Below, piece after piece: positions 215 through 53,313 of a stretch of DNA of 64,000 bases. How positions within the stretch are numbered: the first letter of the stretch is position 1; each line of letters opens with the position of its first letter. Under the pieces are notes generated by a model. It was not told the DNA's origin, searched no databases, and worked only from the letters and a program-made list of their open reading frames with translations. The DNA comes from Escherichia coli. GTDB taxonomy: Bacteria; Pseudomonadota; Gammaproteobacteria; Enterobacterales; Enterobacteriaceae. Position numbers and translations under genes: made by a program. The stretch lies in NCBI RefSeq assembly GCF_024700885.2, contig NZ_CP117016.1. The stretch is one strand, 5' to 3'.

Positions 215-279
215 GATTTACCTCTGAGGTAATTAAAAACCACATAAGACACGAAATCAATAGAGTTTAGAATATTTTA

Positions 280-294
280 TTACCTGATGGGTAA
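280..294. promoter_or_regulatory. Operator-like palindrome TTACCTGATGGGTAA
   Basis: Perfect TTACC-N5-GGTAA dyad in intergenic space between P-like gene and downstream ORF; same motif recurs in the immunity region. Confidence 0.35.
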
Positions 295-331: not shown

Positions 332-1132
332 TTACTTGATAAATCCTGCCGCCTTTCCCCGCCTGTATTCCTCCATCAGCCACTGCGCCGGTGTTATTCC
401 CCCAAGGGTGGCGGCGTTAGGCATGCATCCGAAACTTCGCCCTGGTGGATGGTAAACGTCTCTCCCTGTGTCCGGAGGTGTACTCATGGGCTCTGGCTTT
501 GCCTGTATGCTGATCACCGGATCGGGTATCTGCTGTCCGGAAGCCACCTTTTTCGCCCAATCATCGAGCAGCCTGCGCGCGTGTTTCTCAACCTCAATCT
601 CGCTAAGCTGGCGCTGATACATTGCACGGCGGGTATCACATACGACCCAGTACATAACCGGATGTCGCCACGGGAATCTTTCGGGACCACCAGGATATAA
701 ACTTTTTTCCTTGCTGTACCGGTGAAACTCCGCCATCACATCGTCAATGGTGACGCCAAGAACCATCTTGCTGTCTTTACACCACTTGATGAATTGCCCA
801 GGCGACGGCCAGAACGGAGATTCACTGGCGCGGGCGTGGCGCATACCAGCAGAAACCTGTTCACGGGTTCGGATCCCCCCTTCGGCAAACGCAGCAATCC
901 ACTGCTGTTTTGCAGCTACTTCCTGCCCTGGCGTCTTCAGGTTGGTTACCACTGCCGCCGGAAACAGTTGTTTCAGCTGTTTGAAAAGGGCATCAACAAG
1001 CCTCTCTGCTGACATGTTAACCACATTGTCATTGTTGACGTACTGATGCTCATAACCTGACATGCGAGAAAGGGCTTCTCCGTCACGGTTTTGTATCGCG
1101 GTAAAAACGTTGTTCACAAGAAATCCTCCCAT
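332..1132 (-). CDS. Lambda P-like replication protein (helicase loader)
   Basis: 266 aa ORF; segment PFWPSPGQFIKWCKD and FPAAV region parallel lambda P (PFLPSPGQFVAWCRE) as remembered; overlaps 3' end of O-like gene by 19 nt. Confidence 0.8.
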   Translation of the reverse strand: MGGFLVNNVFTAIQNRDGEALSRMSGYEHQYVNNDNVVNMSAERLVDALFKQLKQLFPAAVVTNLKTPGQEVAAKQQWIAAFAEGGIRTREQVSAGMRHARASESPFWPSPGQFIKWCKDSKMVLGVTIDDVMAEFHRYSKEKSLYPGGPERFPWRHPVMYWVVCDTRRAMYQRQLSEIEVEKHARRLLDDWAKKVASGQQIPDPVISIQAKPEPMSTPPDTGRDVYHPPGRSFGCMPNAATLGGITPAQWLMEEYRRGKAAGFIK

Positions 1133-1929
1133 GCTTCAGGGCTGTTCCAGTGCGGAACGTTGTTATCAGGTAATGTTGATTGCTTCTGTCTGCTAATCTG
1201 CAGCCGCCTTGCCAGCTTCTGCTCCCACTGTGCCTGATGGTATGCCTTACCCTCAGCCATCCAGTAAATTCTGAACTCTGCAAGTTCCTGTGCCGTTGGC
1301 AGACTGTCCAGGTAGATCCCCTGCAATGAGCTTTTCCGAAGAAAGTCATCTGATGGCTGCCATTGTTCATGCATGACAAATTTTCCTAATTGCCCTGGTC
1401 CACCAGGAGGAACAAAGTTATTCATCACGGCGTTGTTTGCTCCGGGGTCATGAGGCACAGAATCCCCGCTTTTTGTCCTGCTCTCCCTCTCTTGGTTAAA
1501 TGACTGGTTATATGACTGGTTCTGGATCCCGTTTTTGGGATCATTCAACATCCCGTTTTTGGGATCATTCAACATCCCGTTTTTGGGTATATTCCCGTTT
1601 TCGGGAACATTACCGTTTTCGGGTTCATTACGTCCTTCTAGGTTGCCTTTAATGTTCCCTTTTTTGGTTATATTAAGAGAGAAAACCCGCACTCTTTTCG
1701 TCGCTCCCTTTCTCTCTCCGGTATCTGAAATAAGCCCCATTTTCATGAGCGATATAAGCCCGGCCTGCACGGTTTTTTTATTCAGGCAAGTGTCTTTAAC
1801 GAGGCGTTCTATGCTGGGGTAGCAGAGGTTATATTCATCGGCTCTGTCAGCCATCGAGAGCAGTATGAGCTTTAATGACGAGCTACCTGGATCTGTCTCC
1901 CAGGCCCAATCTGTTGCATGTCTGCTCAT
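1114..1929 (-). CDS. Lambda O-like replication initiator with internal iterons
   Basis: 271 aa ORF with GGAGA SD; N-terminal HTH-like region; central repetitive linker (NGNVPENGNIPKNGMLNDPKNGMLNDPKNG) encoded by tandem DNA repeats; immediately upstream of P-like gene. Confidence 0.7.
   Translation of the reverse strand: MSRHATDWAWETDPGSSSLKLILLSMADRADEYNLCYPSIERLVKDTCLNKKTVQAGLISLMKMGLISDTGERKGATKRVRVFSLNITKKGNIKGNLEGRNEPENGNVPENGNIPKNGMLNDPKNGMLNDPKNGIQNQSYNQSFNQERESRTKSGDSVPHDPGANNAVMNNFVPPGGPGQLGKFVMHEQWQPSDDFLRKSSLQGIYLDSLPTAQELAEFRIYWMAEGKAYHQAQWEQKLARRLQISRQKQSTLPDNNVPHWNSPEAWEDFL
1526..1630. repeat. Iteron array (putative phage replication origin) inside O-like gene
   Basis: Two exact 24-bp tandem units ATCCCGTTTTTGGGATCATTCAAC (1526-1549, 1550-1573) followed by three degenerate units; core dyad CCCGTTTT(T/C)GGG occurs 5 times at 24/24/18/18 bp spacing; TGACTGGTT x2 at 1501-1522. 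Confidence 0.6.
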
Positions 1930-2295: not shown

Positions 2296-2526
2296 TCATG
2301 AGTAGAAGAAGTATGCCAATTCTGCTTTTGAGCGCAGCCATTGTCTTGTTTTACAGGCTTTAAAAAGCCCATTCATCAATACCTTACCTGGCATTTTGCG
2401 CTTACCTGTTAAGTGAGTCTGGATATAGTGACTCGTCGTTCCGGCTTCCTGTGCGAAGGCTTCACGCTCATCCGGAGTAAGTGCAAGCCAGTGCTTTTTG
2501 AAATCGAAATGTCCGTTATCGCTCAT
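2296..2526 (-). CDS. Cro/DicC-like small DNA-binding protein (putative)
   Basis: 76 aa ORF divergent from repressor gene across operator-containing intergenic region; weak SD. Confidence 0.5.
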   Translation of the reverse strand: MSDNGHFDFKKHWLALTPDEREAFAQEAGTTSHYIQTHLTGKRKMPGKVLMNGLFKACKTRQWLRSKAELAYFFYS

Positions 2527-2562: not shown

Positions 2563-2625
2563 TCACCCATAAGGTAACAAAAATCAAGGATAGTTACCCA
2601 TGAGGTGCATTTACCTGTTGGGTAA
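2563..2625. promoter_or_regulatory. OR-like operator cluster (three TTACC-N5-GGTAA-type dyads) in divergent repressor/cro intergenic region
   Basis: TCACCCATAAGGTAA (2563-2577), TTACCCATGAGGTGC (2594-2608), TTACCTGTTGGGTAA (2611-2625). Confidence 0.55.
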
Positions 2626-2680: not shown

Positions 2681-3265
2681 ATGAAAAGTATCCAAGACGT
2701 CCGCAGGCAAAATCTCAACGACTTGATCGACCGTGAATTCAATGGTGTTCAGACGCGGATGGCTGAAAAACTTGGAACTCAGGCAAATCTGGTAAACCGC
2801 TGGGCTCTTGGCAAGAAGGTTATCGGCGACCAGGTTGCGCGAAAAATTGAAGCTGCCGCCAATAAACCACGTAACTGGCTTGATATCGATCGCTCGCTTT
2901 CTCAGGAGGGTTTTCAGCCTGTCGGACCAAGCGACATTGGTCAGCTGGCGGCTCACAACCTGGAACGCTGGATGAGCGAAAGCCGCGACCTTTCAACACA
3001 GGGAAAACTTCACCGCGCATCCGGCGTCGCCCAAGTGACAATCAGCCGCCTGTTAAACAATGAGGTCAGCGTTTCCATTTCCACCCTGGAGAATGTTGCA
3101 TCTGCATTCGGACGTCACGGATATGAACTACTGATTCACCCGCACGACCCTGCAACTATCAACTATGACCGCTCGCGCTACGCATTGTTACCTGAAACCG
3201 AGAAAGCAAAGATCGAAAGTTACATTGAATTTGTCATCAACCAGAACGAAAAAAACAAACAATAA
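2681..3265 (+). CDS. Prophage repressor-like protein with two HTH (XRE-type) domains; no S24 peptidase domain evident
   Basis: 194 aa ORF; two segments with HTH-like pattern (MAEKLGTQANLVNRWALGKK... and ASGVAQVTISRLLNNEVSVSISTLENVASAFG); divergent from Cro-like gene; followed by terminator. Confidence 0.6.
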   Translation: MKSIQDVRRQNLNDLIDREFNGVQTRMAEKLGTQANLVNRWALGKKVIGDQVARKIEAAANKPRNWLDIDRSLSQEGFQPVGPSDIGQLAAHNLERWMSESRDLSTQGKLHRASGVAQVTISRLLNNEVSVSISTLENVASAFGRHGYELLIHPHDPATINYDRSRYALLPETEKAKIESYIEFVINQNEKNKQ

Positions 3266-3285: not shown

Positions 3286-3312
3286 AAGCCGCCAAATGGC
3301 GGCTTTTTTATT
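3286..3312 (+). terminator. Intrinsic terminator after repressor gene
   Basis: AAGCCGCC-aaat-GGCGGCTTTTTTATT. Confidence 0.6.
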
Positions 3313-3313
3313 G

Positions 3314-3390
3314 TCTATTTAATTACCTTGCAGGTAATTTTTTCAACTCATACCTATTGACATCAAACCAAATACGCATAATCATTACCT
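3314..3390 (+). promoter_or_regulatory. OL-like operator pair flanking candidate early promoter
   Basis: Perfect dyads TTACCTTGCAGGTAA (3314-3328) and TTACCTCAACGGTAA (3376-3390) bracket TTGACA (3348-3353) and a CATAAT-like -10; directly upstream of rightward early operon. Confidence 0.5.
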
Positions 3391-3418
3391 CAACGGTAAC
3401 AAGCTGAGGTAACAAGTT

Positions 3419-8392: not shown

Positions 8393-8428
8393 GACGGTAT
8401 GAGAGTATACCTTTAAGGTAATACCGTC
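8393..8428. promoter_or_regulatory. Nested palindrome upstream of integrase start (candidate int operator or att-arm site)
   Basis: GACGGTAT...ATACCGTC outer inverted repeat enclosing TACCTTTAAGGTA, a near-copy of the TTACC-N5-GGTAA motif. Confidence 0.35.
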
Positions 8429-8510: not shown

Positions 8511-8556
8511 GAGTTGGCATCTGAATAGGAATGATTTGCTATGAGTTAGCTGTTAA

Positions 8557-10134
8557 TCATTCCCACTCAATGGTAGCTGGCGGCTTGCCGCTGATGTCAT
8601 ACACCACGCGGGAAATACCGTTCACTTCATTGATAATGCGGTTGGAAACGCGACCGAGGAAATCGTACGGCAGATGCGCCCAGTGTGCGGTCATAAAGTC
8701 GATGGTTTCGACAGCACGCAGAGAAACAACCCAGTCATACTTACGACCATCGCCCATTACACCAACGGAACGTACCGGCAGGAAGACGGTGAACGCCTGG
8801 CTGACTTTGTCGTACAGGTCCGCTTTACGCAGTTCTTCAATAAAGATGGCGTCAGCACGGCGCAGCAGGTCGCAGTACTCTTTCTTCACTTCGCCCAGTA
8901 CACGAACGCCGAGGCCTGGTCCCGGGAACGGGTGACGGTACAGCATGTCGTACGGCAGGCCCAGCTCCAGACCAATCTTACGCACTTCGTCTTTGAACAG
9001 CTCTTTCAGCGGTTCAACCAGCCCCATCTTCATCTCTTTCGGCAGGCCGCCCACGTTGTGGTGAGATTTGATGACGTGTGCTTTACCGGTTGCAGACGCC
9101 GCAGATTCGATAACGTCAGGGTAGATAGTACCCTGCGCCAGCCACTTCACGTCTTCCAGTTTCAGCGCTTCTTCATCGAATACTTCAACGAAAACGCGCC
9201 CGATGATTTTACGTTTTGCTTCCGGATCGTTTTCGCCGGCCAACGCTGACAGGAAGCGATCTTCTGCCGGAACGTGAACAATGTTCAGACCAAAGTGATC
9301 GCCAAACATATCCAGAACCTGCTCTGCTTCGTTGAGACGCAGCAGGCCGTTGTCGACGAATACGCAAGTCAGGTTTTTACCGATAGCGCGGTGCAGCAGC
9401 ATTGCGGTTACGGAGGAATCCACACCACCAGAGAGGCCGAGGATGACTTTATCGTCGCCTACCTGCTCGCGGATGCGAGCTACAGCATCGTCGATAATTT
9501 TCGCTGGCGTCCACAGGGCTTCACACTGGCAGATATCTCGCACAAAGCGCTCCAGCATGCGCATACCCTGGCGGGTGTGAGTCACTTCCGGGTGGAACTG
9601 TACGCCATAGAAGCGTTTTTCTTCGTTAGCCATAATGGCAAACGGGCAGCTTTCGGTGCTGGCTACGGTGACGAAGTCGGACGGGATAGCGGTAACTTTA
9701 TCGCCGTGGCTCATCCAGACATCGAGCAGAGGTTTACCGTCTGCGGTCAGAGCATCTTCAATACCGCGAACCAGTGCGCTGTCGTTTACGACTTCAACCT
9801 GCGCGTAGCCAAATTCACGTTCGTTAGAGGCTTCAACGTGACCGCCCAACTGCATTGCCATGGTCTGCATGCCATAGCAAACGCCGAATACCGGTACGCC
9901 TGCTTCAAAAACATACTGCGGCGCACGCGGGCTGTTTTCTTCGGTGGTGCTTTCCGGGCCGCCGGAAAGAATAATGCCGCTTGGGTTGAAGTCACGAATT
10001 TGTGCTTCTGTCACATCCCACGCCCACAGTTCGCAGTAAACGCCCAGCTCACGCACGCGGCGCGCAACCAGTTGAGTATACTGGGAACCGAAGTCCAGAA
10101 TGAGGATGCGATGCTTATGAATGTTTTCCGTCAT
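8557..10134 (-). CDS. guaA: GMP synthase (glutamine-hydrolysing)
   Basis: 525 aa; C-terminus ...PPATIEWE; GATase and ATP-PPase motifs (SGGVDSS). Confidence 0.97.
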
Positions 10135-30985: not shown

Positions 30986-31690
30986 CACAGAAAACCCCCA
31001 GCTAGGCTGGGGGTTCCGGAAAGCTTTCAGCTTTGAGCCAGTTATTAAAACCCCTTTTGATTTGTTAAAACACCTTGCGGTCTGGCAACTGCAAGTGTCA
31101 AACAAGAAATCAAAAGGGGGTCCCAATGGGGGACGAAAAGAGCTTAGCGTACACCCGCTGGAACTGTAAATATCACATAGTTTTTGCGCCGAAATACCGA
31201 AGACTGGCGTTTTACGGAGAGAAGCGTAGGGCGATAGGCAGTATTTTGAGAAAGCTGTGTGAGTGGAAAAGCGTACGGATTCTGGAAGCAGAGTGCTGCG
31301 CAGATCATATCCATATGCTTGTGGAAATCCCACCCAAAATGAGCGTATCCGGCGTTATGGGATATCTGAAAGGGAAAAGCAGTCTGATGCTTTACGAGCA
31401 GTTTGGGGATTTGAAATTCAAATACAGAAACAGGGAGTTCTGGTGCCGAGGGTACTATGTCGATACGGTGGGTAAGAACACGGCGAAGATACAGGACTAC
31501 ATAAAGCACCAGCTTGAAGAGGATAAAATGGGGGAGCAGTTATCGATTCCATATCCGGGCAGCCCGTTTACGGGCCGTAAGTAACGAAGTTGAATGCAAA
31601 TGTCAGATCGTATGCGCCTGTTAGGGCGCGGCTGGTAACAGAGCCTTACAGGCGCATTTGAAAAACCTCCGGCTATGCCGGAGGATATTT
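30986..31690 (+). mobile_element. IS200-like insertion sequence (IS200/IS605 family); ends approximate
   Basis: Y1 transposase gene plus upstream hairpins: CCCCCAGCTAGGCTGGGGG (left-end terminator-like) and CCCCTTTTGATTT...AAATCAAAAGGGG pairing that would sequester the tnpA SD. Confidence 0.6.
31126..31584 (+). CDS. tnpA: IS200 transposase TnpA (HUH/Y1)
   Basis: 152 aa from MGDEKSLAYTRWNCKYHIVFAPKYRR; HUH motif (HIHML) and catalytic Tyr region (GYYVDTVG). Confidence 0.9.
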   Translation: MGDEKSLAYTRWNCKYHIVFAPKYRRLAFYGEKRRAIGSILRKLCEWKSVRILEAECCADHIHMLVEIPPKMSVSGVMGYLKGKSSLMLYEQFGDLKFKYRNREFWCRGYYVDTVGKNTAKIQDYIKHQLEEDKMGEQLSIPYPGSPFTGRK

Positions 31691-31960: not shown

Positions 31961-32408
31961 TGCTGGTTTGGTTCGCGGCCTTTCCAGCAGGTTCACTTGT
32001 GTTGCATGAACAACGCAGGTGCCTCACAGCAAAAGAATACTCGCTGTTAAGAAATTTTGTGTCAAGTAAAAAACGAGTAATTATTTTTCGGTTAGCGTAT
32101 TATCGACACCGGCCCTTTCCGCCGTCTCGCAAACGGGCGCTGGCTTTAGGAAAGGATGTTCCTTGGCCGTAAATGCAAGTGTATCTCGTCGCTTGCTATC
32201 GCGGCAATATCGCCAGTGGTGATGTCGTGATGCGGTCTTCGCATGGACCGCACAATGAAGATACGGTGCTTTTGTATCGTACTTATTGTTTCTGGTGCGC
32301 TGTTAACCGAGGTAAATAATAACCGGAGTCTCTCCGGCAACAATTTATTGGTGGTTAACAACCTTCAGAACAGCAGGTAAACCCGAATGCCGCCCTTTGG
32401 GGCGGCAT
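31961..32408 (+). ncRNA. Candidate sRNA-like element, copy 2
   Basis: Repeat of the conserved 5' block plus shared AATACTCGCT and TGCAAGTGTATCTCGTC segments; ends at hairpin 32387-32408. Confidence 0.25.
32387..32408. terminator. Hairpin between copy-2 element and sseB 3' end (possible bidirectional terminator)
   Basis: ATGCCGCCC-tttg-GGGCGGCAT with T-rich flank. Confidence 0.45.
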
Positions 32409-51931: not shown

Positions 51932-52687
<756 letters not shown>

Positions 52688-52791
52688 ATCAGCATACTTG
52701 TCCTTAGCCTTCTGCAGTGACAGCTGGTAGTACAGCGTGCTTCTGGCCAGCCCTGCAGCCTTTAACAGGTCAGGCTGGCAGTGTCCGCACC

Positions 52792-53313
52792 TCAGGCTCC
52801 GGATGACTTTCGTTTTTTCTCCAGCTCCTGGCGCTTTTTTTCCAGGAGATGCTCCTGCATGGCTTTCAGATATGCATTTTCTGCGCGAAGATAACGCAGC
52901 TCATTCTTCATCTCTTCCGGCGTCATGTTTGCCTCGTTTTCATGGGTATCATCAGAACGGGTCATGCTTTTCTCCTTCCTGCGCCTGATAAAGGCCTCAT
53001 TACCAGATTTGCGGTAGCCTTTTATCCAGTTTTTAACCGTGTTGTGGCTGGGAATGTTAAACCGGGCAGCTACCCGGGGTAGAGACTCAGAATGCCCGAG
53101 AGCATAAAGAACCACGCAAAGTTTATCTTCAGGAGAATAGCTACGCTTGTGTCTGCAATCCAGTGCCCGAGGACCGTGAAGAAGAAAAAGATTAATCCAG
53201 TGTGAGAGGCTGGTGTGAGAAAGTTGAAAGAGTTTTGCCGTAGAAATGATGCCTGCATGACCAGCCAGGTAATGATTTACAGCGGCAAGTTTTACTTCAA
53301 ATGAATGTTTCAT
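52792..53313 (-). CDS. IS3-family transposase OrfA (HTH), InsJ-like
   Basis: 173 aa from MKHSFEVKLAAVNHYLAGHAG; leucine-zipper-like C-terminus. Confidence 0.9.
   Translation of the reverse strand: MKHSFEVKLAAVNHYLAGHAGIISTAKLFQLSHTSLSHWINLFLLHGPRALDCRHKRSYSPEDKLCVVLYALGHSESLPRVAARFNIPSHNTVKNWIKGYRKSGNEAFIRRRKEKSMTRSDDTHENEANMTPEEMKNELRYLRAENAYLKAMQEHLLEKKRQELEKKRKSSGA

Follow-up and report, generated by a model that had tools for sequence, protein, structure and literature searches.

The rep gene and its prophage setting

At the centre of the locus is rep, an open reading frame that encodes a putative lysogeny repressor of 194 aa (Table 1). We analysed it within a 64-kb stretch of Escherichia coli DNA, here called the window; from position 1 to about 8570 the window matches the E. 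coli MLI114 chromosome (NZ_CP117013.1) at 100% identity. The RefSeq annotation of the source genome makes an identical CDS call at 2681-3265, labelled "helix-turn-helix domain-containing protein", and the product matches the PHROG 8/13326 transcriptional regulator families. The gene belongs to a phiV10-like (Uetakevirus) prophage that has inserted at the 3′ end of guaA. Only the integrase-proximal arm of this prophage, 8.4 kb long, falls within the window, the remainder of which is core chromosome, from guaA to glyA. A second copy of the att core, with one mismatch, lies at L002 40958-40974 and gives a prophage length of ~39 kb. Here and below, the prefix L002 denotes coordinates in the source-genome locus with the full prophage, L001 those in phiV10 and L003 those in SPC32H.

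Table 1. Features of the rep locus and its prophage. Coordinates are window positions unless prefixed L002.
Feature	Coordinates	Strand	Basis or remark
rep, putative 194-aa lysogeny repressor of the phiV10-like (Uetakevirus) prophage	2681..3265	+	Intact ORF, ATG start
Rep aa 1-72, N-terminal HTH domain, putatively DNA-binding	2681..2896	+	Weak Pfam signals, helices, invariant residues, role in SPC32H Rep
Rep aa 89-153, second HTH_3-like domain, putative middle dimerisation domain (MDD)	2945..3139	+	HTH_3 match, 5D4Z alignment, Foldseek
Rep aa 154-194, C-terminal tail, putative tetramerisation/Ant-binding module (CAD/TetDloop)	3140..3262	+	Alignment to the C-terminus of 5D50_A/5D4Z
Divergent 76-aa cro-like early gene	2296..2526	-	PHROG 35 transcriptional repressor, E = 4.9e-12
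OR-like region, three palindromes between rep and the cro-like gene	2563..2625	.	TTACC-N5-GGTAA pattern
First OR-like palindrome	2563-2577		1 mismatch
Second OR-like palindrome	2594-2608		2 mismatches
Third OR-like palindrome	2611-2625		Exact
Intrinsic terminator 3′ of rep	3286..3313	+	8-bp GC-rich stem, then T run; annotated likewise in phiV10
PL-like promoter and two exact palindromes 62 bp apart	3323..3399	+	Palindromes at 3323-3337 and 3385-3399
Second 62-bp pair of exact palindromes	218..294	-	Palindromes at 218-232 and 280-294, downstream of the P-like gene
Single palindrome upstream of int	8407..8421	.	1 mismatch; also upstream of int in phiV10 and SPC32H
Published 17-bp att core, ATTGAGTGGGAATGATT	8555-8571		3′ end of guaA, prophage boundary
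ant homolog, 85 aa	L002 34159-34416	-	Match to 5D50_E, "Anti-repressor protein", E = 5e-47

In window orientation, the prophage arm carries genes for a P-like helicase loader and an O/DnaT-like initiator, both on the minus strand, followed by the cro-like gene (minus), rep (plus), its terminator, an early-left operon (plus) that includes recE/recT-like genes, and int (minus). This local order matches that of phiV10 and SPC32H. The 76-aa cro-like protein has no match in Pfam; its gene is syntenic with p41 of phiV10 and with SPC32H_042. Within the initiator ORF (1114-1929, minus strand) there are two identical 20-nt stem-forming units, TGGGATCATTCAACATCCCG, placed in tandem 24 nt apart (window 1536-1579). 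They encode repeated NG(M/I)LNDPKNG peptides in the O/DnaT-like protein and resemble origin iterons embedded in an initiator gene, as in lambda O. In the chromosomal part, the RefSeq annotation, converted to window positions, records an IS3-family IS1397 copy between yphB and yphA (about 51965-53313), an IS200/IS605 tnpA near sseA (about 31126-31584) and the small toxin gene timP (about 32255-32380).

Rep has relatives that are already described. It is 100% identical, with no difference in sequence, to p40 of phiV10, to ORF21 of vB_EcoP_ZX5 and to a dozen further E. coli phage repressors, and the GenBank record of phiV10 already annotates p40 with "two helix-turn-helix motifs". In the ZX5 paper, overexpression of ORF21 abolished free phage and lowered endolysin transcripts by 99.99% and holin transcripts by 99.97%; the same paper reports that the ZX5 lysogen is inducible by mitomycin C, and its text mentions neither LexA nor SPC32H. 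A phmmer search of the PDB aligned Rep aa 1-190 with SPC32H Rep (5D50_A, E = 4e-42) and aa 89-190 with 5D4Z, a fragment comprising SPC32H Rep 92-198 (E = 4e-20). By tblastn the two proteins are 41.8% identical over 98% of the protein. SPC32H Rep (PDB 5D4Z, 5D50; Kim & Ryu 2013 J Virol; Kim et al. 2016 PNAS) is thus a full-length homolog of the protein described here. The system is already known: the identical protein has been published, and the mechanism has been described from SPC32H.

In both systems the repressor has three modules and occupies the same genomic position. The operator half-sites are shared too, together with spacings of 17 bp and 62 bp, as is a small cognate ant gene whose LexA box is found at the equivalent place. 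The systems differ in the host, which is E. coli here, and in the attachment site, which is guaA. The repressor sequences have diverged mostly in the dimerisation domain and the linker (34% identity in the MDD, as against 46% in the CAD), and the operator spacers here are less A/T-rich than those of SPC32H.

Domain structure of Rep

The original prediction, made from the letters of the DNA, held that the 194-aa protein has two HTH-like segments, and it proposed a Pfam search and a structure prediction as checks. Both were run, and the two segments are borne out. Pfam placed HTH_3 clearly at aa 106-147 (E = 4.9e-5), where LacI and HTH_26 matches overlap it; at the N-terminus the signals were weaker, with an E-value of 0.0047 for YdaS_toxin (aa 21-61) and of 0.14 for HTH_3 (aa 24-67). 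A scan of NCBIfam returned sub-threshold matches only. An AlphaFold2 model built with 33 homologs (mean pLDDT 80) is all-helical, with one helical bundle at aa 4-59, a second at aa 85-151, a disordered linker between them (aa 74-83) and a long C-terminal helix; the C-terminal tail has lower confidence in this monomer model (pLDDT 57-80). When the model was compared with the PDB using Foldseek, 5D50 and 5D4Z ranked at the top (TM 0.76 to 5D4Z). The lower-ranked matches were XRE/HTH_3 proteins: NHTF, SinR, DdrO, Stl and the N-terminal domain of P22 C2.

To assign functions to the modules we drew on SPC32H Rep. Secondary literature on that protein describes an N-terminal DNA-binding domain (DBD), a middle dimerisation domain and a C-terminal domain, the CAD, since renamed TetDloop and likened to p53, which serves both Rep tetramerisation and Ant binding. 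Placed on this scheme, the stronger Pfam HTH_3 score falls on the second HTH of our protein, the presumed MDD, and not on the presumed DNA reader at the N-terminus. The N-terminal domain is the most conserved part of Rep, but the difference in per-domain conservation is slight (0.79 versus 0.72) and does not decide which HTH reads DNA; that assignment rests on the SPC32H literature. In the N-terminal domain the model places helices at aa 24-31 and aa 35-43, and the residues N36, R40 and W41, all within the putative recognition helix aa 35-43, are invariant among the 33 homologs. In the same alignment, Y162, L170 and F184 of the C-terminal tail are invariant.

From the alignment to SPC32H Rep we infer that the second HTH-like domain has an HTH fold put to use in dimerisation, and that it is not a second DNA reader. 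A recent internal duplication as the origin of the two domains is ruled out: BLASTP between the N-terminal and middle HTH domains returned no alignment and no detectable similarity. Rco/Rap of the Bacillus plasmid pLS20 offers a comparison. Rco likewise has an N-terminal HTH DBD and a C-terminal strand-helix tetramerisation module (a p53-like TetDloop), and its repression is relieved by an antirepressor; however, Rco has no counterpart of the HTH-like dimerisation domain in the middle, and a peptide controls its antirepressor.

Operator-like palindromes and the ant gene

Exact copies of the palindrome TTACC-N5-GGTAA occur five times in the 8.4-kb prophage arm and not once in the remaining 55 kb of the window. 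Across the full locus (L002), 11 sites are found at up to one mismatch, versus 0.87 expected. Three palindromes occupy the interval between rep and the cro-like gene, where the first overlaps a promoter-like site for the cro-like gene (minus strand, 2580-2552). Just downstream of the rep terminator is the PL-like promoter, TTGACA-17-AATCAT, with its -35 element at 3357-3362 and its -10 element at 3380-3385, and the first of the two 62-bp pairs. The second pair brackets a promoter-like site upstream of a DUF1064 gene that lies past the window edge, and its promoter-proximal palindrome overlaps the Shine-Dalgarno sequence of that gene. Besides the site before int, one lone palindrome precedes the structural operon (L002 17258) and another lies just upstream of the ant promoter (L002 34493). 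The 5′ end of the small-terminase gene also contains a pair of operator-like palindromes at a spacing of 18 bp, both here (L002 14029-14061) and in phiV10 (L001 87-119).

The arrangement of these sites is conserved. Both pairs recur with a spacing of 62/63 bp in phiV10, SPC32H, Klebsiella BUCT711 and Enterobacter Tyrion, and in the interval between rep and the cro-like gene a 17-bp spacing recurs in SPC32H and BUCT711 and a 48-bp spacing in phiV10 and Tyrion. Half-sites and spacings are kept across hosts of four genera although Rep identity drops to 42-45% and the other DNA has diverged. From their position and conservation, the TTACC-N5-GGTAA palindromes are likely to be the operators of Rep. 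According to secondary literature on SPC32H, its Rep binds DNA as a tetramer in which the paired DBDs are contributed by different dimers, and the dimer binds DNA weakly. A separation of 62 bp, about six helical turns, would fit one Rep tetramer with two DBD pairs on the same face of the DNA.

The original prediction further proposed that induction may depend on an antirepressor or another signal rather than on direct SOS cleavage. The window holds no homolog of Ant or of Bro-N proteins, and a search for the LexA box CTGT-N8-ACAG found none in it, because the ant locus lies outside the window, as the source genome confirms. There, about 23.7-23.9 kb beyond window position 1, the same prophage carries a gene for an 85-aa homolog of SPC32H Ant (86.9% identity). 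The gene is flanked by the last structural gene and the tail-fibre gene, which is also the place of ant in SPC32H. Directly upstream, ~15 nt from the RBS, is a near-consensus LexA box, TACTGTATAAATATACAGTT, which by manual count agrees with the LexA consensus TACTGTATATATATACAGTA at 18 of 20 positions and overlaps a plausible -10 element of the putative ant promoter. Equivalent boxes are found at the corresponding place in phiV10 and SPC32H. The ant gene of SPC32H is itself said to be LexA-repressed, a point mutation in its LexA box reportedly giving the constitutively lytic SPC32N.

Rep and Ant travel together. Both are present in 35 of the 36 phage records that have a full-length Rep, and among 5426 complete E. 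coli genomes 538 carry the rep region and 528 the ant region. Ant itself belongs to no Pfam family, and its PHROG (450) is listed as 'unknown function'. Some 40 bp upstream of the LexA box, the ant promoter region (L002 34438-34507) also carries an exact palindrome of the Rep type, which reads TTACCTTTCAGGTAA on the ant strand; the same layout of LexA box and palindrome is seen in SPC32H (L003 about 2014) and in phiV10. This arrangement suggests that the ant promoter is under dual control by LexA and Rep, with a possible positive-feedback latch.

Homology to SPC32H Rep and the LexA-boxed ant gene in the same prophage thus support the proposal of induction through an antirepressor, with two corrections. 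First, judging by SPC32H Rep, the second HTH would serve dimerisation and not DNA reading, and a third module, for tetramerisation and Ant binding, would follow it. Second, the antirepressor gene is outside the 64-kb window, so that the window by itself cannot show the link. The SOS signal would still be used, indirectly, through LexA control of ant.

The slot next to ant is variable. In phiV10 it holds p23, a Bro-N gene (L001 19646-20230), and ZX5 likewise has a Bro-N gene, whereas here the place is taken by an unrelated 98-aa ORF of PHROG 3075 (unknown function) on the opposite strand (L002 33831-34127). We considered p23, for which the phiV10 annotation gives a Bro-N domain and a putative anti-immunity function, as an Ant homolog and rejected it: its similarity to 5D50_E is at chance level (E = 0.34), it is absent from the prophage here, and the Ant homolog of phiV10 is its neighbour, the 85-aa p24.

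These Bro-N genes, which phiV10 and ZX5 carry downstream of ant as 'anti-repressor' genes, raise the alternative that the main inducer is another antirepressor, either of the Bro-N/KilA type (ZX5 ORF4, phiV10 p23) or one supplied in trans from another prophage. The anti-repressor test in the ZX5 paper, the only such test in the E. coli subgroup, used the Bro-N protein ORF4 and not the small Ant; when ORF4 was overexpressed, the prophage titre fell 1000-fold and rep transcripts dropped by 75%. Trans-acting antirepressors also have a precedent in the Gifsy prophages, according to a review. However, tblastn found no Bro-N homolog in the source-genome prophage, which nonetheless keeps the small Ant and its LexA box. 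The small Ant is also the partner found alongside Rep in nearly all phage records and the one with which the homologous Rep was crystallised (PDB 5D50). With Bro-N missing from this prophage, it is the small Ant that stands as the conserved partner; an antirepressor of the Bro-N kind, or one acting in trans, may help in some relatives, but it cannot be the conserved mechanism, and we consider it unlikely to be the main inducer here.

Possible routes of Rep inactivation

The original prediction had also found no recognisable autocleavage domain in Rep, and here too the analysis agrees. Pfam detected no Peptidase_S24 domain (PF00717) in Rep even at E ≤ 10, and the 194 aa contain not one AG or CG dipeptide, which leaves the protein without an Ala-Gly or Cys-Gly cleavage site. 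The S24 Pfam domain is present in 0 of 86 database homologs of Rep. The S24 fold is absent from the Foldseek matches of the model to the PDB, and the C-terminal half of the model is all-helical, with no S24 domain and Ser-Lys dyad of the LexA/lambda CI class. The Pfam matches, the missing dipeptides and the count among homologs together make the description of Rep as a two-HTH protein without S24 correct.

Rep might nevertheless be inactivated by proteolysis, either because RecA stimulates cleavage at some non-canonical site or because a partner protease cuts it, as happens in ImmR/ImmA and DdrO/IrrE. XRE-type repressors cleaved by COG2856 metalloproteases do exist; DdrO-related HTH domains are among the weaker fold matches, and the disordered linker (aa 74-83) is a possible protease target. 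Against this stand the lack of any S24 domain, AG/CG site or S24 fold match and the content of the prophage: the annotation of its 39 kb lists no ImmA/IrrE-like or M78 gene, and the ORFs that flank rep belong to PHROGs 35, 898 and 856 only, with no COG2856 protease adjacent. SPC32H Rep, moreover, reportedly stays uncleaved during the SOS response. Proteolysis appears very improbable. An even less credible reading is that the ORF encodes some other HTH protein, for example an accessory regulator or an antitoxin of the HigA/VapI type. In its favour, the identical protein appears in the record of phage BP9 (PP488543.1) as 'plasmid maintenance system antidote protein VapI', and there is a weak TIGR02607 HigA match. 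The 18.7 bits of that match, however, fall far under the NCBIfam cut-off of 47.7 bits, no toxin ORF is adjacent, rep is placed like cI between divergent operator-rich promoters, and the identical ZX5 protein shut down lytic transcription. Rep also has a homolog, SPC32H Rep, whose role as a repressor is defined by genetics and structure.

We therefore return to the small Ant. Rep has full-length homology to SPC32H Rep, the same succession of DBD, dimerisation domain and tail, a small Ant gene in the same prophage and a LexA box at the ant promoter. With considerable confidence, we take it to be the master lysogeny repressor of a guaA-integrated Uetakevirus prophage, controlled by an antirepressor in the manner of SPC32H and left uncleaved in the SOS response. 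In such a lysogen the N-terminal HTH would read DNA, the second HTH-like domain would dimerise, and the short C-terminal strand-helix tail would join two dimers into a tetramer. This tetramer would bind TTACC-N5-GGTAA in the cluster between rep and the cro-like gene and in the 62-bp pairs at the early-left promoter and at the promoter downstream of the replication genes, and so would shut off lytic transcription. Upon DNA damage Rep would remain uncleaved; self-cleavage of LexA would instead derepress the small ant gene elsewhere in the prophage. An Ant tetramer would then bind the C-terminal modules of Rep, splitting the Rep tetramer into weakly binding dimers and freeing the operators.

The last step is modelled on SPC32H, where, as secondary sources describe it, Ant is a tetramer that takes up two Rep dimers and splits the Rep tetramer. 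A review states that antirepressor synthesis in the SPC32H and Gifsy systems is enabled by LexA self-cleavage. For the pair here the Rep-Ant interaction is expected by analogy; since Rep is 42% and Ant 87% identical to the SPC32H counterparts, the interface between them is assumed.

Like the lambda CI/LexA family, Rep appears to do the same job from the same place, between divergent early promoters, with multiple palindromic operators and a response to SOS. Unlike that family, it is without S24 domain, cleavage site or Ser-Lys module, and the SOS signal would reach it indirectly, via a LexA-controlled antirepressor. The repressors of Gifsy and Fels-2 and the CI/Tum pair of coliphage 186 follow the same logic, a non-cleavable repressor being inactivated by the small product of a LexA-repressed gene. 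The proteins themselves are reportedly unrelated, and Ant of the SPC32H type is said to form a distinct class.

Wider readings

Several wider readings concern the wiring of these prophages across genera, and taken jointly they are tentative and rather doubtful. Ant is conserved at ~87%, and the TTACC/GGTAA half-sites are kept among phages of E. coli, Salmonella, Klebsiella and Enterobacter, while Rep is conserved at only ~42%. A single Ant could therefore cross-induce Uetakevirus prophages that have otherwise diverged, and the specificity of immunity could be set by the 5-bp spacer, or by the geometry of the oligomer, instead of the half-site. With a Rep-type palindrome at the ant promoter, Ant could strip Rep from its own promoter, making Ant synthesis self-reinforcing and induction an irreversible latch. 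The strictly conserved 62-bp operator pairs, finally, could be the DNA signature of a 'trans' mode of tetramer binding.

Since the inactivation of the homolog has been solved structurally, the discovery content here is small and the value of these results lies chiefly in annotation. Ant is still a "hypothetical protein" in RefSeq and in most phage records, despite the known function of its SPC32H homolog. The Rep immunity region is carried by ~10% of complete E. coli genomes (the 538 of 5426 noted above). Because Rep has no S24 domain and yet would respond to SOS via ant, tools that infer SOS inducibility from an S24 repressor would misclassify such prophages as non-inducible.
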